From contig JBDREN010000237.1 of NCBI GenBank assembly GCA_043819795.1, forward strand, positions 1 through 16,680: a stretch of DNA of 16,680 nucleotides, given 5' to 3'. The stretch comes from Elusimicrobiota bacterium (GTDB taxonomy: Bacteria; Elusimicrobiota; Elusimicrobia; UBA1565). Each line of letters begins with the position of its first letter. The first letter of the stretch is position 1. The notes below the pieces were generated by a model. That model saw only the letters and a list, made by a program, of their open reading frames with translations. It made no database searches and was not told where the DNA came from. The position numbers and the translations under genes were made by a program. This document shows positions 3,001 to 16,680 of the stretch, one piece after another.

Positions 3001-4188
3001 ATCCTCCAGCAACGCCCCTGCGCCGCGCTCGAGGCCGGGGTGGCGGGCTGGTGGCGCGGGGAAGGGAGCGCCGCCGACGAGGTCCCGAACGGGAGCGACG
3101 GAACGCTCCGCAACGGCGCGGACTTCGCGTCGGGCAAGGTCGGCCAGGCCTTCAGCCTCGACGGGATCGACGACCACGTCGACATCCCCCGGTCGCCGGC
3201 TCTCCTTGACGTGACCCAGGACATGACCTTGACGGCCTGGATCAAGCCCGACCGCCTCGATATCGGCCGCCAGACCGTCATCGGGGCCGAGGACGGCCTG
3301 ACCGGCGCCTGGGAGATGGCCCTCAACGGCCACAGGCTGGAGTTCCGCCATCTGGATGTGGAGGATATCGTCTCCGCCGGGCCCGGGCTCGGCGACACCG
3401 AATGGCATCATGTCGCCGTCGTGCGCGGCGGATCCTCCGGGGACTGGGAGTATTCCTACTATGTCGACGGGCGGCTCGACGGCGTCGCGAGCCGCGGCGG
3501 CGACCTCGTGCCCCGCGACACCGACACGCTCCTGGGGCTGGGGAGGGACGGCGCGTTCCCGTTCGGCGGCCTCATCGACGAGGCCGCGGTCTTCGGCCGG
3601 GCCCTTTCGGCCGAAGAGATCCAGGCCGTCTTCGCCGCGGGCGCCGCGGGGATGTGCCCCGAGATCAACCAGCTGCCCGTCGCGGAGGCCGGGCCGGACC
3701 GCGCGGCGCTGGCCGGCATCGCGGTCGCCTTCGACGGGTCGGCATCGGCGGATCCCGACGGGGAGATCGTGAGCTTCGACTGGGACTTCGGCGACGGCGC
3801 GGCGGGCGCCGGGCCGGCGGCCAGCCACGTCTATCCATCCGCGGGCATCTTCGCGGTCACGCTGACGGTCTCGGACGATGACGGCGCGACCGGGACGGAT
3901 ACCGCCATCGTGACGGTGCGATCGCCCGACCAGGCCATCGCGGACCTCGCCGCCGAAGTCTCGGCCCTCGCCCTGCCGGCCGGGACTTCGCAGTCGCTCC
4001 GATCCAAGCTCGTCGCCGCCATGAGCTCGGCGGACAAGAAAAAAGACACGGCGGCGAGGGGACAGCTCCAGGCGTTCATGAACGAAGTGCGGGCCCAGCG
4101 GGGCAAGCGCCTCACGGCGGATCAGGCCGACGCCCTGCTGGCCGCGGCCGGCGAGATACTGGCTTCCCTTGAGGCGCTGAACCCGTAG
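1..4188 (+). CDS. Giant repetitive secreted/surface protein, 5'-truncated by the window: tandem ~100-aa repeats, LamG-like domain, Ig-like (He_PIG-type) domain, second LamG-like domain, PKD domain, C-terminal helical (FIMAH-like) domain
   Basis: Open frame from the window edge, starting mid-repeat, to TAG at 4186-4188. LamG-like blocks (GLVSWWPGEG...GKVGQSFGFDG...WHHAAVV...FYIDGQL...GLIDEAAVFGRAL) lie at ~2113-2745 and ~3019-3657. An Ig-like segment (GALPPGLELSAEGLFTGAPTQAGSFTFTVQV) lies at ~2752-3010. A PKD domain (FDGSASADPDGEIVSFDWDFGDG...VTLTVSDDDG) lies at ~3667-3920. The helical tail (SLRSKL...ARGQLQAFMNEVRAQRGK) lies at ~3925-4185. Confidence 0.85.
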   Translation, partial: HVRTSGLGVEPYGDDPAPLQLRIAEGGTINLHGSYCDAGLCVGQDADIVIQDGHTYTVSVPGGQVTDSETPGSTALLFAFDFHYMDVALKTVDMAGEPLPGAVFTCVEGFGLPPHEPYPSPQTVHMADGGSICVGGEYHDLGLGVSNGQWREVAQGHTYTINTHTNELISDEATPGATEVRFAFDFHYMDVALKTVDMTGEPLPGTVFACVEGFGLSVNEPYPSPQTVHMADGGSICVGGEYYNLGLGASNSQWREVFQGHTYTINTHTGELISDEATPGATEVRFAFDFQPLDLIVDTVDSSGAHLPGDIELRTPGLNMEPGTYPAPIEVRIADGGWIDLKAHYCDAGLCMSQKANLMVQGGHTYTVNVPGGEVTDRETPGSTAVLFAFHFQYLDILLDAVDASGTHLPGDIEVRTPGLGMEPGTYPAPVNLRMADGGNIDLKAHYCDAGLCMSQKANLMVQGGHTYTVNVPGGEVTDQETPGSTAVLFAFHFQYLDLLLDAVDASGGHVPGDIEVRTPGLSVEPGTYPAPVELRMADGGNIDLKAHYCDAGLCMSRKANLTVQGGHTYTVNVPGGEVTDQETPGSTAVLFAFDFLYMDVEVATVDMEDEPLPGTVLACAEGFGLPVDEPYPSPQMVHMADGGSICLGGRYSDEAIDVSKARWLNVQQGRTYRIDMRTGESTSESTPSATRVLFVAPIEPEPPCGPPPAGLVSWWPGEGDASDIQGGNDGRPVNGAAFAPGKVGQSFGFDGADDGVFIARSDSLDLTQEMTLMAWIKPARLDIGRQTLFGADCDLSGTWEFVLDVNSLGFHYVNMADIVSPGPGLGDTDWHHAAVVRGGSSGNWTYTFYIDGQLDGATAHDGDLVSRNSGTLLGLGRNGAASFGGLIDEAAVFGRALAAEEIQAVFAAGGAGMCQPPPHVLTTSLPDGAVGEPASMRVRAAGGAPPLSFGLAAGALPPGLELSAEGLFTGAPTQAGSFTFTVQVLDAAGSTDSRELNLVILQQRPCAALEAGVAGWWRGEGSAADEVPNGSDGTLRNGADFASGKVGQAFSLDGIDDHVDIPRSPALLDVTQDMTLTAWIKPDRLDIGRQTVIGAEDGLTGAWEMALNGHRLEFRHLDVEDIVSAGPGLGDTEWHHVAVVRGGSSGDWEYSYYVDGRLDGVASRGGDLVPRDTDTLLGLGRDGAFPFGGLIDEAAVFGRALSAEEIQAVFAAGAAGMCPEINQLPVAEAGPDRAALAGIAVAFDGSASADPDGEIVSFDWDFGDGAAGAGPAASHVYPSAGIFAVTLTVSDDDGATGTDTAIVTVRSPDQAIADLAAEVSALALPAGTSQSLRSKLVAAMSSADKKKDTAARGQLQAFMNEVRAQRGKRLTADQADALLAAAGEILASLEALNP
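4..2100 (+). repeat. Intragenic tandem array of two related module types: partial B, A, A, B, B, B, diverged A
   Basis: A units begin YMDV at ~250, ~562 and ~1792 (312-nt period for the adjacent pair). B units begin Q(P/Y)LD at ~871, ~1177 and ~1483 (306-nt period). Adjacent same-type copies are nearly identical in DNA. Both types share ADGGxI, QGxTYT and TPGxTxVxFAFxF. Confidence 0.92.
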
Positions 4189-4395: not shown

Positions 4396-5301
4396 GTGGT
4401 CAGAACAATCAGCCGTTTGTTTCTGGTCTGGACGTTCTTAGCAACAACCTCGAGTACGGCTCAATCCCAGACCCTGGAAGGCGCCAAGGTCCCGCAAGGG
4501 GACGGCTCTCGGCGCCCGCTTCTGCTTGCCCAGCTGCCCCTTCCCGCCGGGAGCTTCGATTGGACGCGGCTGAACCGTCTCTTCGACGCGTCCAAAGCGC
4601 GCGAGCCGCTCAAGAAGGACGCCCCCGACGGGGCCGTCAAGAGGCCGGCGCGGCCGGCCGCGCCCAAGGCCCCGGAGCGGCGCTTGGTGCGCGGCAGGCT
4701 CAAGCAGACCCGCCATCCGCTCGTCGTCCCCACGCCGAAGGCCACGGAAGCGTACCGGCGCACGTTCGGGTACCTGATGGCGCGGCCGGACAAGACGGAC
4801 CGCTTCGACGAGATCATCCTGAAATACGCCTACAAGTTCGAGCTCGACCCGCGCCTCCTGAAGGCCATCATGGCCGCCGAGTCGGAGTTCAACCGCTTCG
4901 CCCGCTCGCCGGTGGGAGCGCGCGGCCTGATGCAGGTGATGCCGCGGACCGCCGCGTCCATGGGAGTGCCCGGCAACCGGCTGACCGACCCCGTGCAGAA
5001 CGTCCGGGCCGGAGCCAGCTACCTCGCCCATCTATTCAGCAGGGTCTGGCGGCGCTACAAGCTCAAGGGGGTCCGCTTCCAGGACGCCCCGCTTTGGGTG
5101 GTGCAGCGGGTCTTGGCGGCCTACCACGCCGGGCCCCGGTTCCTCTACAAGAACCGCTGGTTCCGCTCGACGCGCCACTACGTGCGCAAGGTCCTGCTCT
5201 TCTACCAGTCCGGCGTGACCGACATCCGGCGCCTGCCGGATGAGAAGCGGCAGGTCACGGAGATGACGATCATCCCCTCGTCTTCGGGCTCGTTCCGCTA
5301 G
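4396..5301 (+). CDS. Exported lytic transglycosylase (SLT domain, GH23-like)
   Basis: N-terminal signal peptide (ISRLFLVWTFLATTSSTAQS). SLT motifs: LDPRLLKAIMAAES (catalytic Glu), SPVGARGLMQVMPRTA, DPVQNVRAGASYL, LAAYHAGP and TRHYVRKV. Confidence 0.92.
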   Translation: MVRTISRLFLVWTFLATTSSTAQSQTLEGAKVPQGDGSRRPLLLAQLPLPAGSFDWTRLNRLFDASKAREPLKKDAPDGAVKRPARPAAPKAPERRLVRGRLKQTRHPLVVPTPKATEAYRRTFGYLMARPDKTDRFDEIILKYAYKFELDPRLLKAIMAAESEFNRFARSPVGARGLMQVMPRTAASMGVPGNRLTDPVQNVRAGASYLAHLFSRVWRRYKLKGVRFQDAPLWVVQRVLAAYHAGPRFLYKNRWFRSTRHYVRKVLLFYQSGVTDIRRLPDEKRQVTEMTIIPSSSGSFR

Positions 5302-5303
5302 TC

Positions 5304-5346
5304 CGCAACGGAGCGGGATTCCCGTCGCGAATCCCGCTCCGTTGCG
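5304..5346 (+). terminator. Strong stem-loop directly after the transglycosylase stop (terminator or REP-like element)
   Basis: CGCAACGGAGCGGGATTC (5304-5321) and GAATCCCGCTCCGTTGCG (5329-5346) form a perfect 18-bp stem with a 7-nt loop. No long U-tract follows. Confidence 0.7.
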
Positions 5347-5350
5347 TTGC

Positions 5351-5380
5351 TGGACACCGCTTCCGGCAAATTCCTACCAT
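5351..5380 (+). promoter_or_regulatory. Putative sigma70-type promoter of the flavin reductase-like gene
   Basis: -35 TGGACA (5351-5356), 18-nt spacer, -10 TACCAT (5375-5380). Confidence 0.5.
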
Positions 5381-5391
5381 TACAGCATCTT

Positions 5392-5433
5392 GGATTTTTG
5401 AGAAGATTTCCATGGAAATCTTCTCAAAAATCC
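5392..5433. repeat. Perfect 42-bp AT-rich palindrome with no spacer
   Basis: GGATTTTTGAGAAGATTTCCA|TGGAAATCTTCTCAAAAATCC; the two 21-nt halves are exact reverse complements. Confidence 0.95.
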
Positions 5434-5451
5434 GCTTCCAGACCGCGCTCC

Positions 5452-6060
5452 ATGGAACTCGAGCCCGACGACCTGTCCACCGGCGACCGCTACAAGCTGA
5501 TGACCTCGGTCATCCAGCCTCGCCCGATCGCCTGGGTCTCCACCCAGGACAAATACGGCTGCAACAACCTGGCGCCCTTCAGTTTCTTCACCGGGATCAC
5601 GGCCAAGCCCATGACGCTGTGCTTCGCGCCGGCCCTCGACGGCGAAGGGAGGAAGAAGGACACGCTCGTCAACATCGAGGCGACCGGCGCGTTCGTCGTG
5701 AACGCGGCCACCGAGGCCACCGCCGGCAAGATGGTCCAGACCTCGGCCGCCTATCCGTACGGCGTCGACGAGTTTAAGAAGGCGGGCCTCACCCCGGAGC
5801 GCAGCCTCTTGGTCGATCCCCCGCGAGTGAAGGAGTCCCCGGTCAGCCTCGAATGCAAGCTCGACCGGGTGCTCGAGATCTCCAAGGGACCGATGGGAGG
5901 CAACCTGGTGATCGGCACCGTCGTCTACGTCCGGATCCACGACGCGCTTTGGAAGCAAGGGCGCGTCTCCCACCGGGACCTGAAAGCCGTCGGCCGCCTC
6001 GAGGGCCGGTGGTACTCCCGCGTCACCGACGACCTCGAGATCCCCTGGCCCAAGATCTAG
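5452..6060 (+). CDS. Flavin reductase-like FMN-binding protein (DIM6/NTAB, flavoredoxin-like family)
   Basis: Motifs YKLMTSVIQPRPIAWVST, NLAPFSFF, KDTLVNIEATGAFVVN, PPRVKESPVSLECKL and VGRLEGRWY. Family similarity begins at ATG 5452 (MELEPDDL), not at the ORF-track start 5347. Confidence 0.9.
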   Translation: MELEPDDLSTGDRYKLMTSVIQPRPIAWVSTQDKYGCNNLAPFSFFTGITAKPMTLCFAPALDGEGRKKDTLVNIEATGAFVVNAATEATAGKMVQTSAAYPYGVDEFKKAGLTPERSLLVDPPRVKESPVSLECKLDRVLEISKGPMGGNLVIGTVVYVRIHDALWKQGRVSHRDLKAVGRLEGRWYSRVTDDLEIPWPKI

Positions 6061-6557
6061 GCGGTTCCCTCGGAGAGCAGGCCGCGCCCGCGCGTGCGCA
6101 GCCAGCGCCGGTGGGCCTTGTGGTCGGGGCACCAACGCTCGACCAGCCTCCAGAAATCCCGGGAATGGCTCATCTCCAGAAGGTGGGCCAGCTCGTGGAC
6201 GACGACGTAGTCGAGGACCTCCGGCGGCGCGAGGGTCAGCCGCCAGTTGAAGTTCAGGTTCCCCTTGGCCGAGCAGCTCCCCCAGCGCGTCCGCTGGTCC
6301 TTCACGCGGACCTTCCCGTAGCCCACGCCCATGACCCGGCTCCAGTCCTCGACCCGCGACGCCAGGACCGACGCGGCGCGCCGCCGCTCAGTCGCGTGGC
6401 GGGGCCGCGCCCGGCCGGCCGGCCTCGTCACGGGCCCGAATCCTTCGCCGGGGCGGGGGAACAAGCCCGGCAGCCCGCCGCGAAGGTCCGTCAGGAAGCG
6501 GCGGACCTCCTCGACGAGCCGGGCGGTCCGCTGCCTGCCGGCTCCGAAGAGCTGCAC
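6057..6557 (-). CDS. YgjP/DUF45-like zinc metallopeptidase-family protein (M48/SprT-like)
   Basis: Motifs VKDQRTRWGSCS, LNFNWRL, DYVVVHELAHL (HExxH) and HSRDFWRLV. The probable start is GTG 6557, 7 nt after a TACAAT box. The stop overlaps the convergent gene's stop in CTAG 6057-6060. Confidence 0.85.
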   Translation of the reverse strand: MQLFGAGRQRTARLVEEVRRFLTDLRGGLPGLFPRPGEGFGPVTRPAGRARPRHATERRRAASVLASRVEDWSRVMGVGYGKVRVKDQRTRWGSCSAKGNLNFNWRLTLAPPEVLDYVVVHELAHLLEMSHSRDFWRLVERWCPDHKAHRRWLRTRGRGLLSEGTA

Positions 6558-6611: not shown

Positions 6612-6640
6612 TTGAAAAATTAATATATGCGGGCTACCAT
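6612..6640 (+). promoter_or_regulatory. Sigma70-type promoter of the rotor/stator operon
   Basis: -35 TTGAAA (6612-6617), 17-nt AT-rich spacer, -10 TACCAT (6635-6640), in the divergent intergenic region. Confidence 0.7.
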
Positions 6641-6641
6641 T

Positions 6642-6662
6642 GGAGGAATCCTGGATTCCTCC
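6642..6662. promoter_or_regulatory. Operator-like inverted repeat over the predicted transcription start
   Basis: GGAGGAATCC-T-GGATTCCTCC is a perfect 10-1-10 palindrome immediately after the -10 box. Confidence 0.6.
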
Positions 6663-6718
6663 GGAAATTCCCGCCGAAATCTCCGGAAAGTCCCGTCCAT
6701 CGAAGTCTCGGAGCGAGG

Positions 6719-8365
6719 ATGAGCCGACTTCACGCGGCCTTGCCGCTGACACTATGCTTCCTGTGGCTGCTTCCGGCACCAGGCCGCGCGGCCTCGGCTC
6801 CCCATACGTCCAGCGAGCTGGAGGCACTGATCGCATACGAGAACTCGTTGGAGGACCGCTTGCAGGCGGCCCTCCGCAAGGAGTTCCACACCGACGATGT
6901 ATTCGTCGTCGTCAAGGTCGATCTGCAGAAGAAGACCGAGAAGCAAGCCGAAGAGATCATGCCCGGCGTGCCGATCCCGGCCTCGGCCAACGCGCCGCCC
7001 GTGACGCGGTGGGTGGTCAGCGAGATGTGGGCCAAGGTCTTCATCCGCCAGGGTATCACCGAGGACGAGAAGAAGATCATCGAGGATACGGCCAAGCATG
7101 TGGTGGGTCTGGGTCCCCAGAGCGTGCATGTCGTGGTGAAGGACACCATCAGGCAGCCGACGGTCGAGCCGGACTCCCCCTACGCCGCCTTCTGGAATCC
7201 CGCCTGGCTGCTCTCGCTCTCGTGGCTGCTCATCATCTGCGTGGCGCTCGGCCTGATCTTCATCCGGTTCCTCGCCCCTCTTCTGGGGGTGATCCGGGAC
7301 ATGACCGCCGCCCGGGCCGGCGCCGGGCAGCGGGAGGCGGCCAAGACTGACGCGCAAGCCGCGGAGCGGCTCGCGGCCCTGGAGGAGACGCCCGAGCTCC
7401 AGCGAGCCGCGGCCGAGACCGACGGGGGGGCCGGGGAGAACCTGCCGTTCTCGTTCGTCCGGGAGCGCCACGTCCCCATGATCAAGTTCCTCTTGAGGCG
7501 CGCCCAGCCGCGCACCGCGGCCGTGGTCGTGCACTACCTGCCGCCGCGGCTGGCGGCCGGCGTCCTGTCCGAGCTCGATCCCGGGGCGCGCCAGGAGGTC
7601 GTCGGGCACATGCGCAAGGTCGTACAGCTCGACGAGGCCAACGTGCGGGCCATCGAGCGGGCCCTGCGCTCGCGGATCGACTACCTCATGGGCGGCGAGG
7701 ACAAGCTGGCGGAGATCCTCGACGAATCCCCGACGAGCCTGCAGGAGGAGCTGCTCGAGGCGGTGGGCACGAAGGACCCGGCGCTGGGCCGGCGCCTGGG
7801 CCTGAGGATCGTGCGTCTCGAGGACCTGGCCCTGCTCGGGCCGGCCGACTTCAAGCTCCTCACCCAGCGCGTGCCCCTGCCAAGCCTGGCGGCGGTCCTA
7901 AAGCACTCCAAGGAGCTCGCGGACCGGATCCTTCCCAAGCTCACGGGAGGCTTCGGCGAGCGCCTCAGCGAGGAGATCGAGCTCACCGGCGAGCTGCCGC
8001 CGCCCCGCCTCGCGGCCCAGCAGAGCCGCGTGCTCCGCGCTCTGTCCCGGCTCGTGCGCGAGGGCCACGTGGTCCTCAAGAAGGAGACGCTTGGCTATAC
8101 CGAGACCGAAGCCGAGGCCGAGCCGGCCGGTGTGGAGAGCCTTCCGCCTCCGGTCGCCGCGGGCGACGCGGGGGAGGGGCCGGCCCCGGAGCCTTTGGCC
8201 GCGCCCGAAGCCGGCGGCGAGGCCACGGCCGACGCGCCGGAGCTCGTCGACGAGAAGGCCCTGCCGGCTCCTCCGAAGAAACCGCCGGAGGAACACGGCG
8301 GCGGACCCGTTGAGAAGCGCGCCGCCCGCGGCGAGGGCGGCGTGAGCGAAGACACCCCCGCATAG
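6719..8365 (+). CDS. Membrane-anchored FliG-like rotor protein: signal peptide, FliF-ring-like periplasmic domain, TM helix, FliG middle and C-terminal domains, acidic Pro/Ala tail
   Basis: Signal peptide ending PGRAA. Periplasmic part (YENSLEDRLQAAL...VFVVVKVDL...MPGVP...AKVFI...IIEDTAKHVVGL...SVHV) has a FliF RBM3-like pattern. TM helix at ~7205-7295. FliG-M-like segment (PFSFV...LLRRAQPRTAAVVVHYLPPRLAAGVLSEL...VRAIERAL) from ~7445. Gly-Gly linker at 7691-7696. FliG-C-like segment (GGEDKLAEIL...DPALG...LEDLALL...LAAVLK...EEIELTG...QSRVLRALSRLVREGHVVL) to ~8080. It lies directly upstream of motA. Confidence 0.8.
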   Translation: MSRLHAALPLTLCFLWLLPAPGRAASAPHTSSELEALIAYENSLEDRLQAALRKEFHTDDVFVVVKVDLQKKTEKQAEEIMPGVPIPASANAPPVTRWVVSEMWAKVFIRQGITEDEKKIIEDTAKHVVGLGPQSVHVVVKDTIRQPTVEPDSPYAAFWNPAWLLSLSWLLIICVALGLIFIRFLAPLLGVIRDMTAARAGAGQREAAKTDAQAAERLAALEETPELQRAAAETDGGAGENLPFSFVRERHVPMIKFLLRRAQPRTAAVVVHYLPPRLAAGVLSELDPGARQEVVGHMRKVVQLDEANVRAIERALRSRIDYLMGGEDKLAEILDESPTSLQEELLEAVGTKDPALGRRLGLRIVRLEDLALLGPADFKLLTQRVPLPSLAAVLKHSKELADRILPKLTGGFGERLSEEIELTGELPPPRLAAQQSRVLRALSRLVREGHVVLKKETLGYTETEAEAEPAGVESLPPPVAAGDAGEGPAPEPLAAPEAGGEATADAPELVDEKALPAPPKKPPEEHGGGPVEKRAARGEGGVSEDTPA

Positions 8366-8378
8366 GAGAGACCCGCGC

Positions 8379-9164
8379 ATGGACCTGATGACCGTCCTCG
8401 GCAGCCTCTGCGGCTTGGGCGTGATCTTCTACATCCTCATCGCCCAGGACCTCGCGGAGTTCCTCCTCAACACCCACGCCTTCGTCCTCATCTTCGGCGG
8501 AACGGCCGGCGCGGTCATGATCAGCTACCCCTGGTCCGCCCTCAAAGAGGTCCCCAACGCCGTGTGGATGATGCTCTTTCCGCACAAGCGGCCCCCGTCC
8601 GCCGTGCTCGTCCAGGCCTTCATCCGTCTGGCGGAGAAGGCGCGCCGCGACGGCGTCGACTCCCTCGAGCCCGAGATGGCCGGCCTCCCGCACCCCTTCA
8701 TGCAGGACTGCCTGCAGATGATCCTCGACGGCCTCGACAAGGAGACGATCGAGGACCGCTGCGAGCGCGACATCCTGGCCACGCGGCAGCGCCACCAGCA
8801 GGTGAGCACCGTCTTCCGCTCGGCCGGCACCTACTCCCCCATCTTCGGCCTGCTAGGGACCCTGATCGGCGTCGTGGAGGTACTGCGCACGATCGAGGAG
8901 CCCACGAAGATCGCCTCCTCGATGGCGGTGGCGATGACGGCCTCCTTCTACGGGATCTTCGCGGCCAACTTCCTGTTCTTGCCGATCGCCAACAAGCTGG
9001 CATTCTATTCCGACGAGGAGGTCCTCAACCGGGAGCTGATCTCCAAGGGCAGCATCTCCCTGCAGCAGGGCGAGGCCCCCTGGCTGCTCTCGAAGAGGCT
9101 TGAGGCCTACCTCTCGTTCCACCTGCGCCGTGCCGGCGCGAAGAACTACAAGGCCCGCGCATGA
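8379..9164 (+). CDS. motA: Flagellar-type stator A subunit (MotA/PomA family)
   Basis: SD AGGAGAG. Four hydrophobic segments. Motifs IFGGTAGA, LAEKARRDGVDSLE (the Arg and Glu used in rotor contact), PFMQDCLQMILDG, YSPIFGLLGTLIG, MAVAMTASFYGIFAANFLFLPIANKL and LQQGEAP. Confidence 0.93.
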   Translation: MDLMTVLGSLCGLGVIFYILIAQDLAEFLLNTHAFVLIFGGTAGAVMISYPWSALKEVPNAVWMMLFPHKRPPSAVLVQAFIRLAEKARRDGVDSLEPEMAGLPHPFMQDCLQMILDGLDKETIEDRCERDILATRQRHQQVSTVFRSAGTYSPIFGLLGTLIGVVEVLRTIEEPTKIASSMAVAMTASFYGIFAANFLFLPIANKLAFYSDEEVLNRELISKGSISLQQGEAPWLLSKRLEAYLSFHLRRAGAKNYKARA

Positions 9165-9183
9165 CCCGTCCGGGGCGGAAGCC

Positions 9184-9855
9184 GTGATACCGTTCTTCCA
9201 CCGGATGGCCCCGGCCACGATGGAGGAGAACCCCCTCTGGCTGGTCGTGCTCTGCGACCTGATGACGAACCTCATGCTGTTCTTCCTCGCCATGTTCGCC
9301 CTCACCCAGGGCGCCATCGCCGAAAGGGAGAGGACCTTCGAGGTGACCGGCATCATCGAGATGCCGGAGGCGCGCCTGCCCGAGAGGTTCCCCGAGTTCC
9401 GGGCGCCGGCGGCCGCCGAGGCCCTGGAGAGGCTGTTCCAAGAGGAGGGCCGGGCGATCGTCGTTATCGATGCGAAGCGCGAGAACGCGATCCGGGTCCG
9501 CCTGCTGGACCGCATCCTGTTCCGGAGCGCCGAAGCGGACCTCAGCCCCGCGGCGGAGCGGGCGATCAGGCTCCTGGCGGGGGTGCTCAGGGAGATCCCC
9601 AACGAGATTGTGGTCGAAGGCCATACCGACGTGGTGCCGATCGTGTCCGGACAGTTCGATAGCAACTGGGAGCTCTCGGTGGCGCGCTCCTACGCGGTGA
9701 TCGAACGGCTCATGCGGGAAGGCGTCGAGCCCGAAAGGCTCGTGGCGGCCGGCTACGGCGAGCACCACCCGGTCGCGCCGAGCGATACGCGCGCGGGCCG
9801 CGAGCGCAACCGGCGCGTCGAGATCGTCATCCTTAGAGAGGAGGAGCGGACGTGA
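9184..9855 (+). CDS. motB: Stator B subunit (MotB family) with OmpA-like peptidoglycan-binding domain, copy 1
   Basis: TM segment WLVVLCDLMTNLMLFFLAMFAL carries the conserved Asp. Also ILFRSAEADL, IVVEGHTD, SNWELSVARS, AGYGEHHP and NRRVEIVI. The start is uncertain: GTG 9184, ATG 9205 or ATG 9220. Confidence 0.88.
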   Translation: MIPFFHRMAPATMEENPLWLVVLCDLMTNLMLFFLAMFALTQGAIAERERTFEVTGIIEMPEARLPERFPEFRAPAAAEALERLFQEEGRAIVVIDAKRENAIRVRLLDRILFRSAEADLSPAAERAIRLLAGVLREIPNEIVVEGHTDVVPIVSGQFDSNWELSVARSYAVIERLMREGVEPERLVAAGYGEHHPVAPSDTRAGRERNRRVEIVILREEERT

Positions 9856-10529
9856 GTCCGAAAGCCGGCCGCCACGCGGCGATCTCCTCCCTTAAAGGGG
9901 ACGGCCTGCCGACCTCGCTCTGGATGGTCCCCTACGCGGACCTCATGTCGGCGTTGATGATCCTGTTCCTCGTGTTGTTCGCGGCCTCCTACGGGAAGGC
10001 ATCCTTCAAGTTCCTCGAGCGGGCGAAGAAGATCGTGGAGCAGGTGGGCAAGGCGGAGGTCGAGGCCGCCGCCCCGGGCGGCCCGATCGTCGGCGCGATC
10101 GAGGACGAGATGGACCGCCTCGCGCTCAAGGACTTCGGCATGCGCGTCACCTCGCGCTACATCCACCTGACGTTGCCGTCGCCGGTCCTCTTCCGCATGG
10201 GCTCGGCCAGGCTCACCCCCTCGGCAAAGCGCTACCTCATGCCGCTCGGGCGCGTGATCGCCAAGTTCCCCAACCCGGTGCTCGTGGCCGGCCATACCGA
10301 CGACCTGCCCATCCGCGGCGGGTCCCACAATACGAACTGGGAGCTCTCGGCCGCGCGCGCCTTCTCGGTGATCGATTTCTTCGTCCAGCGCGGCCTGCCG
10401 CCCTCGCGGTTCCAGGCCCGCGGCTACGGGGAGTACCGGCCGGTGGACACCAACGAGACCGCCGACGGCCGGCGCAACAACCGCCGCATCGAGATCCGCC
10501 TGGTCCGCGAGGCGCGCAAGGAGCCATGA
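9852..10529 (+). CDS. motB: Stator B subunit (MotB family) with OmpA-like peptidoglycan-binding domain, copy 2
   Basis: GTGA overlap with the previous stop and SD GAGGAG. TM segment WMVPYADLMSALMILFLVLFAAS. Also VLFRMGSARL, VLVAGHTDD, NWELSAARA, RGYGEYRP and NRRIEI. Confidence 0.92.
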   Translation: MSPKAGRHAAISSLKGDGLPTSLWMVPYADLMSALMILFLVLFAASYGKASFKFLERAKKIVEQVGKAEVEAAAPGGPIVGAIEDEMDRLALKDFGMRVTSRYIHLTLPSPVLFRMGSARLTPSAKRYLMPLGRVIAKFPNPVLVAGHTDDLPIRGGSHNTNWELSAARAFSVIDFFVQRGLPPSRFQARGYGEYRPVDTNETADGRRNNRRIEIRLVREARKEP

Positions 10530-11446
10530 GGGAGCTCTCCGCCTACCTGCTGGCCCTGGTGCTTTGCGCGGCCCCGCTGTTCGCGGTGAGGCCCGAGAGC
10601 GCCTCCGCCCCCTCGACGGGAGGAGAGCGCGGGCAAGCAGACGCCTCGGAGGATGTGACCGGAGAGGAGCTTAAGGAGCGCTACGACACCGCCCTGCGCC
10701 ACTACGGTTCGGGCGACTATAGCAAGGCCATCCTCCAGTACACCGAGATACTCAAGCTCGATCCCCGGCAGAAGAGGGCCGATGAGATGATCCGCAGGGC
10801 CCGCGAGCGGATCGCCCAAAGGGACAAGGAGCTGGCCCTGTTCGGGCACGTCCGCGCCGGGGAGTACCAGAAGGCCCTCGTGGCGCTGCAGCCGCTGTTG
10901 GACGGCGACCCCGGGCATCCGCTCTACAAGAGGCTGCAGGAGCGCCTGGAGGACGTGATCGAGGTCTGCGGCCCCAAGGCCCCGGAAGGCAGGGCCTGGC
11001 GAGCGGCGAAGAAGGGGCTGGCCGGGCTCCTGGGAGCTGAGGAGGACCTCCAGCTCGCCTACGACGCGCTCCGCCACGCCCGGGACATCGAGCCGGACGA
11101 GGCGCGTTTCGCGAGGTTCATCAAGCTCGCGCTCGAGGTCAAGCCCGGCCTGGCGCAGGACAAGATCACCCCGGGGATGACCTTGCTGGAGTACCTGCGC
11201 GCCGTCGCGCTCGAGCACATCTACGACGGAAAGTATCACCTGGCCGTCCGGGTGCTGACCCGGGCCTTGGCCTTCGAGCCCGACGACCTCGTCTGCCTCA
11301 AACGGCTGGGCTCCGCGTACTACGCGCTCAAGCGCTGCGCCAAGGCCGCGGAGGCCTGGGACAAGGCGCTCCAGAGCGCCCCCGCCGACGCCAAGATGAA
11401 GGAGTTCCTCGAACGCGCGCGGCGCTGCGCGCAAGAGCCCCGGTAG
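10526..11446 (+). CDS. Exported tetratricopeptide-repeat protein
   Basis: ATGA overlap with the motB2 stop. Signal peptide (LSAYLLALVLCAAPLFA). TPR-like units: ALRHYGSGDYSKAILQYTEILKLDP, IYDGKYHLAVRVLTRALAFEPDD and LKRLGSAYYALKRCAKAAEAWDKALQSAP. Confidence 0.85.
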   Translation: MRELSAYLLALVLCAAPLFAVRPESASAPSTGGERGQADASEDVTGEELKERYDTALRHYGSGDYSKAILQYTEILKLDPRQKRADEMIRRARERIAQRDKELALFGHVRAGEYQKALVALQPLLDGDPGHPLYKRLQERLEDVIEVCGPKAPEGRAWRAAKKGLAGLLGAEEDLQLAYDALRHARDIEPDEARFARFIKLALEVKPGLAQDKITPGMTLLEYLRAVALEHIYDGKYHLAVRVLTRALAFEPDDLVCLKRLGSAYYALKRCAKAAEAWDKALQSAPADAKMKEFLERARRCAQEPR

Positions 11447-11451
11447 GCCTA

Positions 11452-12213
11452 CTACTTCTTCTTCTCTCTCAGTTTGAAGCGGAACGTCTTCTTCTTGCCG
11501 CCCTTCTTGTATCTGAGCTTGAGCTCCAGCTCTTTTTGGTCGCGCCGCATCTTCTGGGCGCGCTCGAGGAGCCTCTCGATCCGCTTCGGACGGATACCCT
11601 TCTGCCAGACCTCGCGGTCCTCCTTGCCCATCTTCCGGGGCGCCTCCGGAGCGTCGGCGGCGCTGGCGACGCGCGTCACTTGGCCGGCCGTGAGGGCCTG
11701 CCGGCCGTGTTCGTTGAACACGTCCGCGTGCCCTTCGTAGACCTTGACGTCGAGGCGCCCGCTGATCGCCGCGTCCACCTCGGTGCCCCGCACGGAGACC
11801 ACGGCCAAGGGCGTGCCGATCCTGACCTGGGCCCTTCGGTGGAGCATGCGCGTCCACACCTGGCCGATCTTGAAGGCGACCACTGCGGGCAGGGACCCGG
11901 TGCCTCCGTCCTTCACCTCGAAGACCGTCTTCTCGTTGAGACGGATCTCCACGCCGGAGAGCAGCGCCAGGGAGGCCAGATCTCCCCTGCGCGTCTCTAC
12001 GACGTCGCCTTGGCGGAGGAACATCCCCACATCGAGGGGCACGGGCTTCGGGCTGTCGGGCCGCTTCAGCTGCGGCGCGCCCTCGACGGCGACGGCCACG
12101 CCCTGCACCGGCCGGTCGGCCGCCGCGGCGACCCGCGACCCGCAAAGAAGGCCGGCCGCGAGGGCCAGGGCCCCGGCTAGATACGCTTTAGGCGGGATCG
12201 ATCGGGCATCCAT
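11452..12213 (-). CDS. Exported FecR-domain protein with Lys-rich C-terminus (paralog 2)
   Basis: Signal peptide ending RVAAAA. FecR-like motifs LRQGDVVET, EIRLNEKT, IGTPLAVVSVRGTE and VKVYEGHADV. Confidence 0.82.
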   Translation of the reverse strand: MDARSIPPKAYLAGALALAAGLLCGSRVAAAADRPVQGVAVAVEGAPQLKRPDSPKPVPLDVGMFLRQGDVVETRRGDLASLALLSGVEIRLNEKTVFEVKDGGTGSLPAVVAFKIGQVWTRMLHRRAQVRIGTPLAVVSVRGTEVDAAISGRLDVKVYEGHADVFNEHGRQALTAGQVTRVASAADAPEAPRKMGKEDREVWQKGIRPKRIERLLERAQKMRRDQKELELKLRYKKGGKKKTFRFKLREKKK

Positions 12214-12218
12214 GATCT

Positions 12219-12629
12219 CTACTCCTGGCCCGCGCCGAGGCTTTCCAGGGCCTCGGCCGCGCGGCGGCGCACCTCGGGACTCTCCTCACCCAGCTTGCGG
12301 CGCAATGGACCCACGGCCCTCGCGTCCCCGAGCCGGCCCAGGGACTGCGCCGCGTTGATCACGACCGCGGCCTCGGGATCGTCCAGGGCCCGGATGAGCG
12401 GCTCCACGGCGCGCGCGTCCCCCCTCAGGCCCAGCTGGTGCGCGGCGTGCGCGCGCTCGAAGAGCTTGCCGTCCCCGAGCCTGGCGAGCTCCCGCGCGAG
12501 CGGGTCCTCCGCGCCGAAGAGCCTCACCTCGGGGACATGCAGCCCCAGCGTCCATCCCGCGCCCACGCAGGCCGCGGCCAGAAGCGCCAGGCCGGCCCTG
12601 CGCAGCGGCGTCTCTCGGGGTCCCCTCAT
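12219..12629 (-). CDS. Small HEAT-repeat (PBS lyase/HEAT_2-like) protein with N-terminal membrane anchor or signal
   Basis: Hydrophobic N-terminus (AGLALLAAACVGAGWTLGL). Repeats AAHQLGLRGDARAVEPLIRALDD, AAQSLGRLGDARAVGPL and VRRRAAEALESLG. Confidence 0.85.
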   Translation of the reverse strand: MRGPRETPLRRAGLALLAAACVGAGWTLGLHVPEVRLFGAEDPLARELARLGDGKLFERAHAAHQLGLRGDARAVEPLIRALDDPEAAVVINAAQSLGRLGDARAVGPLRRKLGEESPEVRRRAAEALESLGAGQE

Positions 12630-12669: not shown

Positions 12670-14637
12670 TCAAAAGGAATACGAATAGCGCGTCGCCACG
12701 GTCAGCTCGCTGGCGTCCTGAGAGGTCTGGATCTTGTCCTGGATCTTGTTGTAGCCGAGACCCAAAGTCAGGCTCGAGCGCTGGCTCTGCGCCCAGGTGA
12801 ACTCGGAGTTGAGCGCCGTATCCTGCCTGTCGGCCGGAAACGCGGGCGAGGTGTTCTCGCTCTTGGTCAGCGTGGCCCAGAACTGAATGGTCCAGTCCGC
12901 GCTCAGGCGCTTGGCCAGGCTCGGCGAAACCGTCAGCGAGGTGCGCGTGGAGCCGTCGGCCTTGTCCTTGGTCTGCGACCGCGTTATCCCGAACGAGGCG
13001 TTGACGGCGCGCGGCAGAAAGAAGTTCGAGGAGAGCGCGACCGTGTTCGTGTCCAGGTCGTCGGCCAGCTTGTTGTTGTCGGTGAACCGGCTGTTCTGGA
13101 CGCTCAGCGACACGCTCTGGCGGCCGAAGCTGTGCGCGACCCCGAAGCCGGCGGTCGTGGTCTGGTTGTCGAGCGCGGTCGCGGGCTTGCCCTTGGCCGT
13201 GTTCAGCGAGAGCGAGAGGCTCAGGCTCGTCGCGGCCGGGAGCTGGAACGCGTGGCTCGTGGCGATGTACCGCTGCGTGGTCGTGACCTTGGCCGGGTCG
13301 TTGTCGAGGTTGTCAATATACTGGTTCAGCGACAATGAGAGGGTGTACCAGGAGGCCGGGAACAAGCCCAGCGACCCGTTGTACGTCATGCGGTCGCCGA
13401 CGACCGCCGGCGAGCCGAAAGCGACGAAGTCCGACCCGGCCCGCTGCAGGTACGTCCGAAGCTTGAAGATCTTGCGCTCCCACCGGAACTCGCCCTTGTA
13501 CGCCGTGTCCTTGACCCCGGGCTGGCTCGTGTCGGCATAGTACGTGTTGAGCTGGTAGTCCACCAGCACCTTCATGCGCGGCCGCGGGTCCCACGAGAGC
13601 CCGAGGCCGTAGCCGCCGTTCTTCTGGGGAACGAGGGTCGGCCCGCGGAAGTTGGCCGAGTCGGGATCGGTGTTGAGCGACCCGCTCTCATCGGCGCTCA
13701 GGAAGTAGTTGACCGAGAGCTTGACGTTGGCCGGCAAGCTCCTGGCGCACTCCGCCGCGTAGAGCGTCCGGGCGAAGCGGCCGTTGGCCGTCTGCGTGCC
13801 CGGCTGGGACTCGATCGTCTGCCCGCCGAGCACGGACCATTCCCAGGGCCCCTTCTTCTGCTCGAGCCATACGCCCCGCATCCCCTGGCCGTTGAGCGAG
13901 AGCTCGCTCAAAGTCGGGGAGATGTCCCCCCCGTAGACCGTGCCCCAGGGCGCGTAGTAGGTGAAGAGGAGGATGAAGGGGTCGAAGACGTCGCCGGGCT
14001 CGTGCAGGATGTAGGCGTTGAACAGATACGAGGAGTCCTTGATCTTGCCGACCGTGTTGAACGTCGTGGCGCCCGAGTGCTCGCTCCAGGCGTCGCCGCT
14101 CGCGTTCTTGTAGGAGACCGTCACGTTGCCCTCGACGCGGTAGTCCACGGGCTTGGGCGGCTCGGGGATCGGCTTGGCGAGGATCTGGAACGGCTTGAAA
14201 TCGGAGTCCACCAGCGTCTGGCCGTCCTTGATGAGGAGGACGCGGTAAAGCCGCCGCCCGACCATCGTCGCGGGGACGCGGAAGGGAAGCGAGATCGACG
14301 CCACGCCCCCCGGAGCCACGCTGTCGCGCGGGGAGACCTGGTCGGTCCTCCCCACGAGCTTCTCTTCGATCTCGTAGACATACGCGACCCAGTAGTAGCT
14401 GCCGGCCGCCCACGCCTGCGCCCCGGTGTTCACGACCAGAGCCTGCAGCGCGACCGTGTCCCCGGCGTGGACGGGATCCGGCGCGGGGAGCGTGAACTGA
14501 AGGCTCGCCGAGTCGGCGGCGCGGGCGGGCGCCGGAACCGCCAAGCCGATAGCGAGCGCGCACAGGCAAGCCGACATCCGGGGACGGGCCCCTGGTGTCG
14601 ACTTGCCGCGGGCGTCGGTGGCGTGGCTGTCGCGCAT
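12670..14637 (-). CDS. Putative outer-membrane beta-barrel protein with N-terminal Ig-like domain
   Basis: Signal peptide (ACLCALAIGLAVPAPARA; alternative start ATG 14577). Ig-like N-domain (VHAGDTVALQALVVNTGAQAW...VAPGGVASISLPF). Pro linker PIPEPPKP. Then ~490 aa of alternating amphipathic strands rich in S/T/N/Y/G, ending in the beta-signal-like VATRYSYSF. Confidence 0.78.
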   Translation of the reverse strand: MRDSHATDARGKSTPGARPRMSACLCALAIGLAVPAPARAADSASLQFTLPAPDPVHAGDTVALQALVVNTGAQAWAAGSYYWVAYVYEIEEKLVGRTDQVSPRDSVAPGGVASISLPFRVPATMVGRRLYRVLLIKDGQTLVDSDFKPFQILAKPIPEPPKPVDYRVEGNVTVSYKNASGDAWSEHSGATTFNTVGKIKDSSYLFNAYILHEPGDVFDPFILLFTYYAPWGTVYGGDISPTLSELSLNGQGMRGVWLEQKKGPWEWSVLGGQTIESQPGTQTANGRFARTLYAAECARSLPANVKLSVNYFLSADESGSLNTDPDSANFRGPTLVPQKNGGYGLGLSWDPRPRMKVLVDYQLNTYYADTSQPGVKDTAYKGEFRWERKIFKLRTYLQRAGSDFVAFGSPAVVGDRMTYNGSLGLFPASWYTLSLSLNQYIDNLDNDPAKVTTTQRYIATSHAFQLPAATSLSLSLSLNTAKGKPATALDNQTTTAGFGVAHSFGRQSVSLSVQNSRFTDNNKLADDLDTNTVALSSNFFLPRAVNASFGITRSQTKDKADGSTRTSLTVSPSLAKRLSADWTIQFWATLTKSENTSPAFPADRQDTALNSEFTWAQSQRSSLTLGLGYNKIQDKIQTSQDASELTVATRYSYSF

Positions 14638-14698: not shown

Positions 14699-15484
14699 CT
14701 ATTTTTTCTTCTTGAGCCTCAGGTTGAGCTCCTTCTCCTCGCCGCCTTTCCCCTTGTACTTGAGCTTGAGCATGCGGGTCCGCCCGGACTCCTCGTGCAG
14801 CCGCTTGAGCTTCTTGTCCACGTCCTTGGGGGAGAGAGCGTCCTGCCAGCTCCCGTACTCCCCCGCCTCGAGCTTCCGCGCCGGCTGAGGCGCCTGGCCG
14901 GCCCCGGCCACCTGCGTGGTCATCCCGGCCTGCAGCGACTGCCGCCCGTGGTCGTTGGAGACGTCCACGTGGCCTTCGTAGACTTTGACCGTCATCCTTT
15001 CCTGTATGTCCACGTCCGCCTCCGTCCCGCGGACCGAGGCGACCGCCAGCGGCGTCCTGACCTGCATCCCGGCCCGGCCATGCAGGAGCCGGGTCCATAT
15101 CTGGCCGGCCCGCGAGAACACGCTGGTCGCGCTGCGGCCGCCCCCCGACTCGACGAGGAACTCGGAGCTCTCGTTGATGCGCATTTCGGCCCCGCCGATG
15201 AAGGCGATGGCCGCCCGCTCGCCCGCGCCCGTCTTCACGAGGTCCCCGTCGTAGACGAACTTATTGAGCTTCAGGCGCCTGAACTTACCCTCGCCCCCGC
15301 GCCGGACCATGGGCTTGCCCTTCACGTCGATGACGACCCCGGCCACGATGTCGCCCTTGGACGCCGCGGCCGCCGGCGCGGGCGCCGCCGCCGAGGCCGA
15401 CAAAACGGCCAGCGCCGCCAGGACGGCCAAGGCGCACGGGCTCCGCCGCGCCCCGGCCGGAACGCTTCCTCTCGTGTTCGTCAT
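14699..15484 (-). CDS. Exported FecR-domain protein with Lys-rich C-terminus (paralog 1)
   Basis: ATG 15484 overlaps the upstream TGA (ATGA) and has SD GGGAGG. Signal peptide (CALAVLAALAVLSASAAA). Motifs VYDGDLVKTG, EMRINESS, VRTPLAVASVRGTE and VKVYEGHVDV. Confidence 0.85.
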   Translation of the reverse strand: MTNTRGSVPAGARRSPCALAVLAALAVLSASAAAPAPAAAASKGDIVAGVVIDVKGKPMVRRGGEGKFRRLKLNKFVYDGDLVKTGAGERAAIAFIGGAEMRINESSEFLVESGGGRSATSVFSRAGQIWTRLLHGRAGMQVRTPLAVASVRGTEADVDIQERMTVKVYEGHVDVSNDHGRQSLQAGMTTQVAGAGQAPQPARKLEAGEYGSWQDALSPKDVDKKLKRLHEESGRTRMLKLKYKGKGGEEKELNLRLKKKK

Positions 15485-16680
15485 GGCGTCTTCCTCCCGA
15501 TGCGTTTGAATTCGACGGCCAGCTCCGTGGCCGGGATGACTCTCAGGCGATAGGGCGCTTTCCCGCGCGCGGCCTCCCGCTTCCCCCCGGGCGCGCCGCG
15601 CACGACCAGGCGGTAGCGGACGACCAGCCCCTCCTGGGTCTCGTGGATCTTCTGTATCTCGACTTGCTCCGCCCCGTCGCCGCTGCCGGCGATGACGCCG
15701 ACCACCATGAACGTGCGGAAATCCACATCCGGCACCTTCCGGTCGCTGATCTGGCGCCAGAGGCGCCTGAACTGCTTGGGCGTGTAAACCTTGACCTCCG
15801 TCACCAGCTTCGAGACCGGGTCCGTGAACCCGCTCCACTCGAGCCTGGACTCGGGCCCCTTCGCGGGCGGAGCCTCCAGGACCGGGGGCGGGGGCGCCAG
15901 GGCATAGACCACCGGCTCGGCTCCGGGCTCCGGAGTCGTCAGCGCCACCTCCACGTTGCCCTTGCGCAGCTCGGCGAGCAGCTCCTCGAGCTCGCCCGCC
16001 GTCAGCGGCGGCTCGATGCCGGCGATCTCGTACTCGTCGAAGCCGAGGCCCTGCTCCTCGAGGACCTCCTTGACGCCCTCCCAGGCCTCCTCCTCGGTCA
16101 GCTCATCGGGCGGCTCCGGGGGCGCGGCGACCGCGACCGGCAGGCCGGGGGCCAGCGGGTAGATCACCGGCGAGGATCCGGGCTCCGGAGTCGTCAGCGC
16201 CACCTCCACGTTGCCCTTGCGCAGCTCGGCGAGCAGCTCTTCGAGCTCGCCCGCCGTCATCGGCGGCTCGATATCGGCGATCTCGTACTCGTCGAAGCCG
16301 AGGCCCTGCTCCTTGAGGGCCTCGCGGACCTCTTCCCAAGCCTCCTCCTCGGGCAGGGCGTCGGCCACAACGGGAACGGGCATCGGCCTCACATCGGGCA
16401 CCAGCACGTAGACCGGCGGCGGGCCCCCGGGCTCCGGACCCGTGAACGTCACGTCCACCCGGCCGTCCCGCAGCTCGGCGAGCAGATGCTCGAGCTCCTC
16501 GCGCGTCAGGCCGCGGTCCAAGCCCTCGAGCTCGTAGTCGTCGAGCTCGAGCCCCTGCTCCTTGAGGGCCTTGCCGATGTCCTCCCAGAGCTCCTCTCGA
16601 TCCATCTCTTCCAGCGGCGGACCGGGGGGCGCGGCCACCGGCGGGCCCGCCGGAGGCGGGGCGCCGGGCGCCGGCGGGGC
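15481..16680 (-). CDS. Pro-rich, acidic-repeat protein with C-terminal PrcB-like domain, 5'-truncated by the window
   Basis: The frame stays open to the window edge (APPAPGAPPPAGPPV...). Three Glu-rich repeats. The C-terminal FRRLWRQI...VPDVDFRTFMVVGVIAG...VEIQKI...LVVRYR...APYRLRVIP resembles the PrcB C-terminal family. Confidence 0.72.
   Translation of the reverse strand, partial: APPAPGAPPPAGPPVAAPPGPPLEEMDREELWEDIGKALKEQGLELDDYELEGLDRGLTREELEHLLAELRDGRVDVTFTGPEPGGPPPVYVLVPDVRPMPVPVVADALPEEEAWEEVREALKEQGLGFDEYEIADIEPPMTAGELEELLAELRKGNVEVALTTPEPGSSPVIYPLAPGLPVAVAAPPEPPDELTEEEAWEGVKEVLEEQGLGFDEYEIAGIEPPLTAGELEELLAELRKGNVEVALTTPEPGAEPVVYALAPPPPVLEAPPAKGPESRLEWSGFTDPVSKLVTEVKVYTPKQFRRLWRQISDRKVPDVDFRTFMVVGVIAGSGDGAEQVEIQKIHETQEGLVVRYRLVVRGAPGGKREAARGKAPYRLRVIPATELAVEFKRIGRKTP
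15895..16610 (-). repeat. Three intragenic acidic repeats of ~83-85 aa
   Basis: Unit EEAWEE(V/I)xxxLxEQGLxxDxYE...TxxELExLLAELRxGxVxVxxTxPEPGxxPxxY. Periods are 255 nt (15941 vs 16196) and ~249 nt. The last two copies are near-identical in DNA. Confidence 0.9.

Follow-up and report, generated by a model that had tools for sequence, protein, structure and literature searches.

To our knowledge, every characterised FliG ring turns a flagellum. The gliding motor of Myxococcus, AglR/AglQ/AglS, works without a flagellum and has one A subunit but B subunits of two different kinds; it is TolQR-like and acts via a TonB-like transducer. Here we analyse a five-gene operon encoding a fused FliF/FliG rotor, a MotA, two MotB proteins and an exported tetratricopeptide repeat (TPR) protein in an Elusimicrobiota bacterium. 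The operon is located on a stretch of 16,680 nt, in the following called the window, which is contig C237 (JBDREN010000237.1) of a 4.99-Mb assembly with 241 contigs and a completeness of 90.3%. AglRS is named in the accessible part of PMC12505986, from which the stator classes including FIT (flagellar-type) are taken as well. For free-living Elusimicrobiota, the accessible part of a previous study describes motAB, flbD and fliG without a flagellar structure and calls their role unclear (10.1101/2022.07.08.499144). The genes of the operon are:

6719..8365, plus strand: fused FliF/FliG rotor, 548 aa
8379..9164, plus strand: MotA of flagellar (PomA/MotP-like) type, 261 aa; MotA_ExbB, E 1e-24 (Pfam)
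9184..9855, plus strand: MotB1, 223 aa; transmembrane helix with Asp25, OmpA-like domain; MotB_plug and OmpA (Pfam)
9852..10529, plus strand: MotB2, 225 aa; transmembrane helix with Asp30, OmpA-like domain; MotB_plug and OmpA (Pfam)
10526..11446, plus strand: exported TPR protein, 306 aa; TPR (Pfam)

All five reading frames are co-directional and closely linked, as stated by the first-pass annotation of this DNA: the first two gaps measure 13 and 19 nt, and at the other two junctions the genes overlap by 4 nt. The start codon of motB1 is GTG at 9184, a start position shared by homologues. The system is real, conserved and not flagellar, and apparently it is undescribed as a system. With a probability of roughly 0.45, we assume that the five genes give rise to an ion-driven inner-membrane motor that acts via the TPR protein on an outer-membrane barrel and moves surface cargo of a type IX secretion system (T9SS)-like kind.

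The rotor unites the RBM3 fold of FliF and the folds of FliG in one chain, and structure comparison thereby bears out the fusion that had been proposed. A signal peptide (residues ~1-24, predicted by reading the N-terminal sequence) is followed by the RBM3-like domain (27-143), a transmembrane helix (164-182), FliG_M (256-321, E 3e-11 in Pfam), FliG_C (349-453, E 2e-8) and a disordered tail (458-548). The AlphaFold model (pLDDT 72.9, pTM 0.39) was compared with known structures using VIA-align, as was the barrel model described below. Modelled residues 27-143 resemble RBM3 of FliF (6SCN, FliF 228-435, rmsd 2.1 over 97 residues; Z 11.7 for both 6SCN and 8Z5V), and residues 240-458 resemble FliG (1LKV, Z 12.4). 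The rotor scores 52 bits against TIGR00207 (FliG), the cut-off of which is 227 bits, and no FliG_N is found in it above cut-off. RBM1, RBM2 and the two transmembrane helices of FliF are absent; because RBM3 begins at residue 27 there is no room for RBM1/2. Among 82 aligned rows of the rotor family, FliG_C is matched in all and YscJ_FliF_C in 58, and a single transmembrane helix separates the RBM3 and FliG parts in 74. The profile search yielded 235 clusters at E ≤ 1e-30. Named relatives belong to Elusimicrobiota, apart from one Nitrospirota locus and one unclassified bacterium. Similar fusions are found in the Atlas with Balneolota as most frequent recorded phylum, which serves as a lead only.

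At the sequence level the stator is of flagellar type, as the first-pass annotation had assumed: MotA is nearest to flagellar A subunits (9LU9 at E 2e-45, PomA at E 9e-37), and both MotB proteins show a plug/linker and an OmpA-like domain. In MotA, R89 corresponds to R90, E97 to E98, D117 to PomA D114, and T161/A188/S189 to PomA T158/T185/T186. Residues were counted in 42 two-MotB operons for rotor and MotA and in 41 for MotB1 and MotB2. Left out were L052 (shares its contig with L020), L018 (breaks off within the rotor), L084 and the two other operons of the genome (different subtype) and, for MotB only, L078 (mis-split reading frame). The equivalent of R90 is R or K in 41/42 operons, those of PomA D114, P173 and P222 are conserved throughout (42/42). 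At the ion columns, the T158 equivalent is always T (42/42), the T185 equivalent A in 26, T in 14 and G in two, and the T186 equivalent T in 24 and S in 18. H+ stators carry A at both 158 and 185 according to the accessible part of PMC10374538. In the rotor of the window, K395 stands for K264, G411 for R281, E418 for D288, E419 for D289 and a proline for R297; the K264 equivalent is K or R in 40 and the D289 equivalent E in 37 of the 42 operons.

The transmembrane Asp of MotB1 is invariant (41/41). The respective column of MotB2 shows D in 25, N in 15 and T in one operon, i.e. the ion-binding Asp is missing in 16 of 41. A quick tree of 87 rows places MotB1 and MotB2 in two old and distinct lineages, with three label changes each compared to 28 in shuffles. 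Since MotB2 proteins with Asn would hardly be able to drive a stator on their own, a stator heterodimer of MotB1 and MotB2 is likely. In L084 (G007:C3), an operon of the FlbD type, motB was duplicated recently and independently, and one copy carries Gly at the Asp column.

A flagellum to which these parts might belong was searched for in the whole genome. Neither the export gate (FlhA, FlhB, FliP/Q/R), rod, hook or flagellin nor the switch proteins FliM/FliN or chemotaxis proteins (CheW, MCP) were found in the 90.3% complete genome, control searches for the FlhA, flagellin, FliP, FliM/N and CheW families being positive. From 44 flagellar and chemotaxis queries of E. coli, only motA, motB, fliG, fliI, fliA, cheY, cheB, cheA and fliO gave matches; the best ones for fliI are on the contig with the ATP synthase operon, and the one for fliO is marginal (E 0.009). 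The window itself, in which the first-pass annotation had seen no further flagellar genes, indeed contains no rod, hook, flagellin, export or chemotaxis family among 14 proteins scanned with Pfam. None of 128 loci contains a further flagellar gene, and che genes occur in one.

The phylum gives a consistent picture. In a sample of 151 genomes the rotor profile matches 55, two of them (G060, G102) in FliG_C only, MotB_plug matches 62 and FlhA four. The flagellated G060 has an ordinary FliG of 355 aa and a different stator. Dozens of genomes without FlhA have the operon, and MotA is intact and 66-73% identical across seven named Elusimicrobiota loci. None of the observations that the first-pass annotation had named as refuting it was made: we see no full flagellar set, no tie to flagellar export genes and no pseudogene-like decay. 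In two families with small genomes, f4 and f12, presumably gut-associated lineages, the rotor is matched in 0/45 and 1/44 genomes (partial).

The order rotor-motA-motB-motB-TPR is kept in eight of nine loci of relatives, the ninth ending inside the rotor. L058 (G031:C15) has an extra gene of the TPR family between motA and motB1. Around the operon the following features were found:

6612..6640, plus strand: weak sigma70-like site TTGAAA-17-TACCAT, 9/12 consensus bases matched
11452..12213, minus strand: FecR-domain exported protein, second copy; a single one in most relatives
12219..12629, minus strand: small HEAT-repeat membrane protein
12670..14577, minus strand: predicted outer-membrane barrel, N-terminal Ig-like domain and ~26 strands; conserved partner of the operon
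14699..15430, minus strand: FecR-domain exported protein, recurrent barrel neighbour
15481..16680, minus strand: 'U1', conserved exported protein, C-terminal part

The operon had been called stand-alone, self-contained and bounded by unrelated convergent genes. Neither description holds. The genes for the barrel and the FecR-domain proteins accompany the operon, often co-directionally; four more rotor paralogues are present in the genome, and the context is that of a T9SS-like system with SprA, PorV and C-terminal domain (CTD) proteins. Of the 55 loci that we considered well flanked, with at least 4.5 kb on the upstream and 5.5 kb on the downstream side, 46 have a free TPR gene, six a PorV-TPR fusion before the rotor and three other layouts. 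The barrel gene is present in 42/46 loci with free TPR, but in 0/6 with the fusion and 0/3 with other layouts. Among genome loci, it lies upstream in the same direction in 12, downstream in the same direction in two, and is convergent in 12; the respective numbers for metagenome loci, taken from a scan based on the MotA alignment, are four, one and 36. The rotor family is present in each of the 29 genomes with a full-length barrel; 27 of these belong to the group of 29 genomes whose rotor match reaches E ≤ 1e-60. G090, G148 and G150, genomes of the same order, lack both the barrel and the rotor subtype of the window. FecR-domain, U1 and CTD genes often come after the barrel gene, which is single-copy in the genome. 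The barrel model (pLDDT 89) consists of an Ig-like domain and ~26 strands by our own count, with no plug in the chain. No family, PorV/PorP included, matches it in NCBIfam or Pfam; the closest structure is MtrB (6R2Q_B, Z 22.4, rmsd 4.3, 11% identity).

With the profile of the TPR protein, six further members were recovered from the genome (53-145 bits, 121-206 profile positions covered), while the next-best generic TPR reaches 27 bits (59 hits in the genome). Five of the six are C-terminal domains of PorV/PorP-like barrels and one adjoins a rotor paralogue. As these relatives are mostly fused to barrels, the free TPR protein can be regarded as the barrel-less form of a domain bound to outer-membrane barrels. 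The first-pass annotation had named it as a candidate adaptor, which appears plausible for the same domain that sister operons fuse to PorV-like barrels; it may bind the 26-strand barrel or the rotor. Neither the TPR profile nor the barrel profile gave an informative match in PDB or Pfam. Three further PorV/PorP-like barrel genes with a TPR of the same family (G000:C66:350-2347, C172:9665-11692 and C158:5814-7796) adjoin CTD cargo, and the stretches read there contain no motor genes. Possibly their products are clients of the motors.

Five FliG_C genes exist in the genome, all being long frames of the same layout, and three have motAB. Two of the latter form sister operons that are preceded by a giant CTD protein and a PorV-like-TPR gene. 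The operon at L092 (G000:C218:33000-48000) comprises a CTD protein of >12,270 aa, PorV-like-TPR, a rotor with C-terminal TPR, a coiled coil, FlbD, motA, motB and a lipoprotein-like gene; a c-di-GMP-I riboswitch lies at L092:4153-4232 (63 bits). The one at L093 (G000:C56:9500-22500) has a CTD protein of 6602 aa, PorV-like-TPR, a fusion of histidine kinase and rotor with an internal stretch resembling a signal peptide, a coiled coil, motA, motB and response regulators, followed by the ATP synthase operon. The paralogues L097 (G000:C214) and L098 (G000:C220) have no adjacent motAB. One is found beside a TPR gene near groESL, the other between kinases and response regulators. The copy on C220 has lost the torque-helix charges.

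Using our own profiles, 40 proteins with CTD-like tail and 26 PorV-like genes were found in the genome. A CTD gene is found within two genes of 22/26 PorV-like genes, compared to 94/3587 other genes. In a sample of 16 proteins analysed with NCBIfam, PorV_fam is above cut-off in 3/5 barrels and TIGR04183 in three tails, in support of both assignments. A single-copy SprA/Sov-like gene of ~1800 aa is located at L192:6953-12523 (G000:C134:12952-18525). This homologue reaches E 8e-42, but 143 bits with a family cut-off of 200 bits; the profile of its family matches only SprA in PDB (E 1e-35). PF14349 failed to match the gene whereas a profile from relatives did. The first blank for SprA was hence a false negative, and therefore the blanks for GldM (0/151 genomes) and GldN (0/1 genome), obtained with no positive control, may be false too; GldL and GldK were not searched. 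The SprA-like gene, which often adjoins recurring housekeeping genes, is present in 142/151 genomes of the phylum including 80/89 of f4 and f12, and PorV_fam in 144/151. Taken together, SprA-like and PorV-like proteins across Elusimicrobiota, with no GldM found, point to a phylum-wide T9SS-like system outside Bacteroidota.

That the motor is the core energiser of this secretion was considered and became less probable given the distribution of SprA and PorV, the motor being almost absent from f4 and f12. Since the secretion system is present without the motor, the latter would be an accessory rather than the core engine. Absence from small-genome families that keep SprA is the pattern expected of a dispensable function linked to lifestyle.

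In the motor reading that we prefer, the fusion would polymerise into a ring via RBM3 and FliG M/C. A MotA5 stator with a MotB1/MotB2 heterodimer, anchored on peptidoglycan, would engage the FliG helix by the retained R90-D289-type pair. Because FliM, FliN and CheW are not found, the output would be one-directional and probably of low or modest torque. The TPR protein would connect the ring with the 26-strand barrel, in the way that the fused TPR of the sister operons would connect it with PorV. The load would be a CTD-bearing surface protein exported by the SprA-like translocon, and its movement might serve surface motility or the movement of adhesins. A more specific version is tentative and rather doubtful: a single-chain FliF-FliG ring with a MotA5-B1-B2 stator and a TPR handle would be geared to barrels holding giant T9SS-secreted proteins, and this appendage would be spun or translocated. 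If true, free-living Elusimicrobiota would possess a new type of rotary machine with a one-polypeptide appendage replacing the flagellum; the flagellar torque core would work without export apparatus and could pair with a T9SS without GldLM.

Several observations weigh against the motor reading. According to the accessible part of PMC4030992, the R90-D289 pair contributes to stator positioning and the E98-R281 pair mainly to torque. In none of the 42 two-MotB operons is the R281 equivalent R (G in 37), and the E98 equivalent of MotA is E in only 4/42. The apparent loss of this torque pair is what speaks most against a strong rotary motor. As read from lists of reading frames, a flagellar FliG of the same phylum retains R281, and two flagellar MotA proteins there carry Q at E98; the change at E98 therefore means little and only the loss of R281 is specific. 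Moreover, four of the 46 loci with free TPR have no barrel nearby, G059 and G125 carry the barrel without a high-scoring rotor of the window's subtype, and the loci are related and partly redundant, such that the counts overstate independence. The barrel does not look PorV-like in the model, its best match being an electron-conduit porin, and its role for the cargo is predicted only. No track or ring like GldJ/K/N was identified (GldK not searched, GldN blank without control). Finally, six PilT-family genes above cut-off are present in the genome, and surface motility could be pilus-based.

An unlikely but serious alternative is that the motor energises export, release or loading of very large CTD proteins, or of the partner of the barrel, without any cell movement. 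This would parallel the role of GldLM in Bacteroidota for some cargo, and it fits the presence of SprA-like, PorV-like and CTD proteins, the location of operons next to giant cargo genes and the several motor paralogues per genome. The missing GldM in 151 genomes points in the same direction but comes from the search without positive control, and with SprA in 80 of the 89 f4 and f12 genomes and a partial rotor in one, general secretion is independent of the motor.

It seems quite unlikely that the ring does not rotate but serves as a docking scaffold which opens or reads the stator and signals surface contact or barrel load to a two-component system. Such a sensor would explain why the docking pair is retained and the torque pair lost. 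Among the paralogues, one carries a fused histidine kinase, two have kinases and response regulators around them and two are without adjacent motAB; the c-di-GMP riboswitch precedes a sister operon. The operon of the window, however, contains neither kinase nor regulator, none of the channel residues of MotA and MotB1 varies, and FliG M and C are both retained.

Very unlikely is an accessory role in type IV pili, in envelope remodelling or in contact with prey that has no relation to T9SS-like cargo. The PilT-family genes and a lytic transglycosylase gene recurrent near several operons would fit, and twitching or gliding are raised as options in the accessible part of 10.1101/2022.07.08.499144. 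Yet the recurring neighbours are barrel, FecR, PorV-like and CTD genes, and no pilus cluster is among those of 49 loci. A relic of a lost flagellum, or a flagellum missing from an assembly of 241 contigs and 90% completeness, is highly improbable: 4/151 relatives are flagellated, but the distribution already contradicts this reading, given intact MotA, operons in genomes without FlhA, the ordinary FliG of flagellated G060 and a fusion without RBM1/2.

Regarding the remaining features of the window, the sigma70-like promoter named in the first-pass annotation exists as a site but is weak, two sites of such match being observed where 0.6 ± 0.7 are expected. No Rfam elements were found in the window, and the leader repeats (6640-6695) are short with no excess over chance. 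The HEAT-repeat gene has no tblastn match beside the operon in nine loci (L013-L021) and is probably a passenger. The N-terminal part of U1 and an upstream T9SS-CTD protein presumably lie at the end of contig C217, which would then join C237. Positions 1-4188 encode part of a surface protein that is rich in repeats and has two LamG, Ig, PKD and FIMAH domains. Genes for an SLT transglycosylase, a flavin-reductase-like protein and a YgjP-like metallopeptidase follow (4396-6557); each is found near the operon again in 2-3 of nine close relatives, which is probably local synteny. A 21-bp hairpin (95%) is located 3' of the SLT gene (5304-5346) and a perfect 42-nt palindrome 5' of the flavin-reductase-like gene (5392-5433).

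A conserved minimal rotor-stator unit allows three questions to be tested: does a ring with its stator suffice to generate torque, which tasks could the core of the flagellar motor fulfil in the absence of an export apparatus, and by what means are T9SS-like systems powered, or for what purpose used, if they have no GldLM? The two-site stepping model of 5:2 motors would be put to a direct test by a natural MotB heterodimer, one chain of which is often devoid of the ion-binding Asp, and a four-gene motor is easy to express and image.

In the literature no description of the fusion or the operon was found, judged from titles and abstract openings, with subscription papers mostly outside reach. 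There is no mention of motA, fliG, T9SS, PorV or gliding in 10.1101/765248, of T9SS, PorV, MotA or FliG in 10.1101/2023.11.21.568195, or of Elusimicrob or fusion in PMC13277936. The FliF-FliG fusion, the operon, the two types of MotB, the link between TPR and barrel, and SprA are all absent from the passages available from 10.1101/2022.07.08.499144; its supplements may say more.

Compared to known systems, the resemblance to MtrB, the 26-strand porin of the Mtr complex, is probably due to barrel size only, and no multiheme partner is among the recurring neighbours of the barrel. In contrast to the Agl motor, the stator is of flagellar type with OmpA-like domains and faces a FliG rotor. With T9SS and gliding of Bacteroidota (GldLM, GldKN, SprA, PorV, SprF/SprB) the system shares a SprA-like translocon, barrels of the PorV/PorQ family that are paired with type A/B CTD proteins, and an ion motor tied to secretion genes by gene order. 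It differs in that GldM and GldN were not found (no positive control), the SprA-like protein of ~1800 aa stays below the family cut-off, the motor consists of MotAB and a FliG ring, and the barrel of the window is not PorV. The core of the flagellar motor (FliF, FliG, MotA5B2/PomA5B2) has the RBM3 fold, FliG M/C, flagellar-type MotA, MotB with transmembrane Asp and OmpA-like domain, and the R90/D289-type charge pair in common with it. Here, however, the rotor is one chain with signal peptide, one transmembrane helix and no RBM1/2; FliM/N, rod, export gate and filament are lacking and R281 is lost, whereas two MotB lineages and TPR and outer-membrane barrel partners are added. Although it is a member neither of the flagellar system nor, on present tests, of the T9SS motor of Bacteroidota, this motor probably works like the flagellar torque core.

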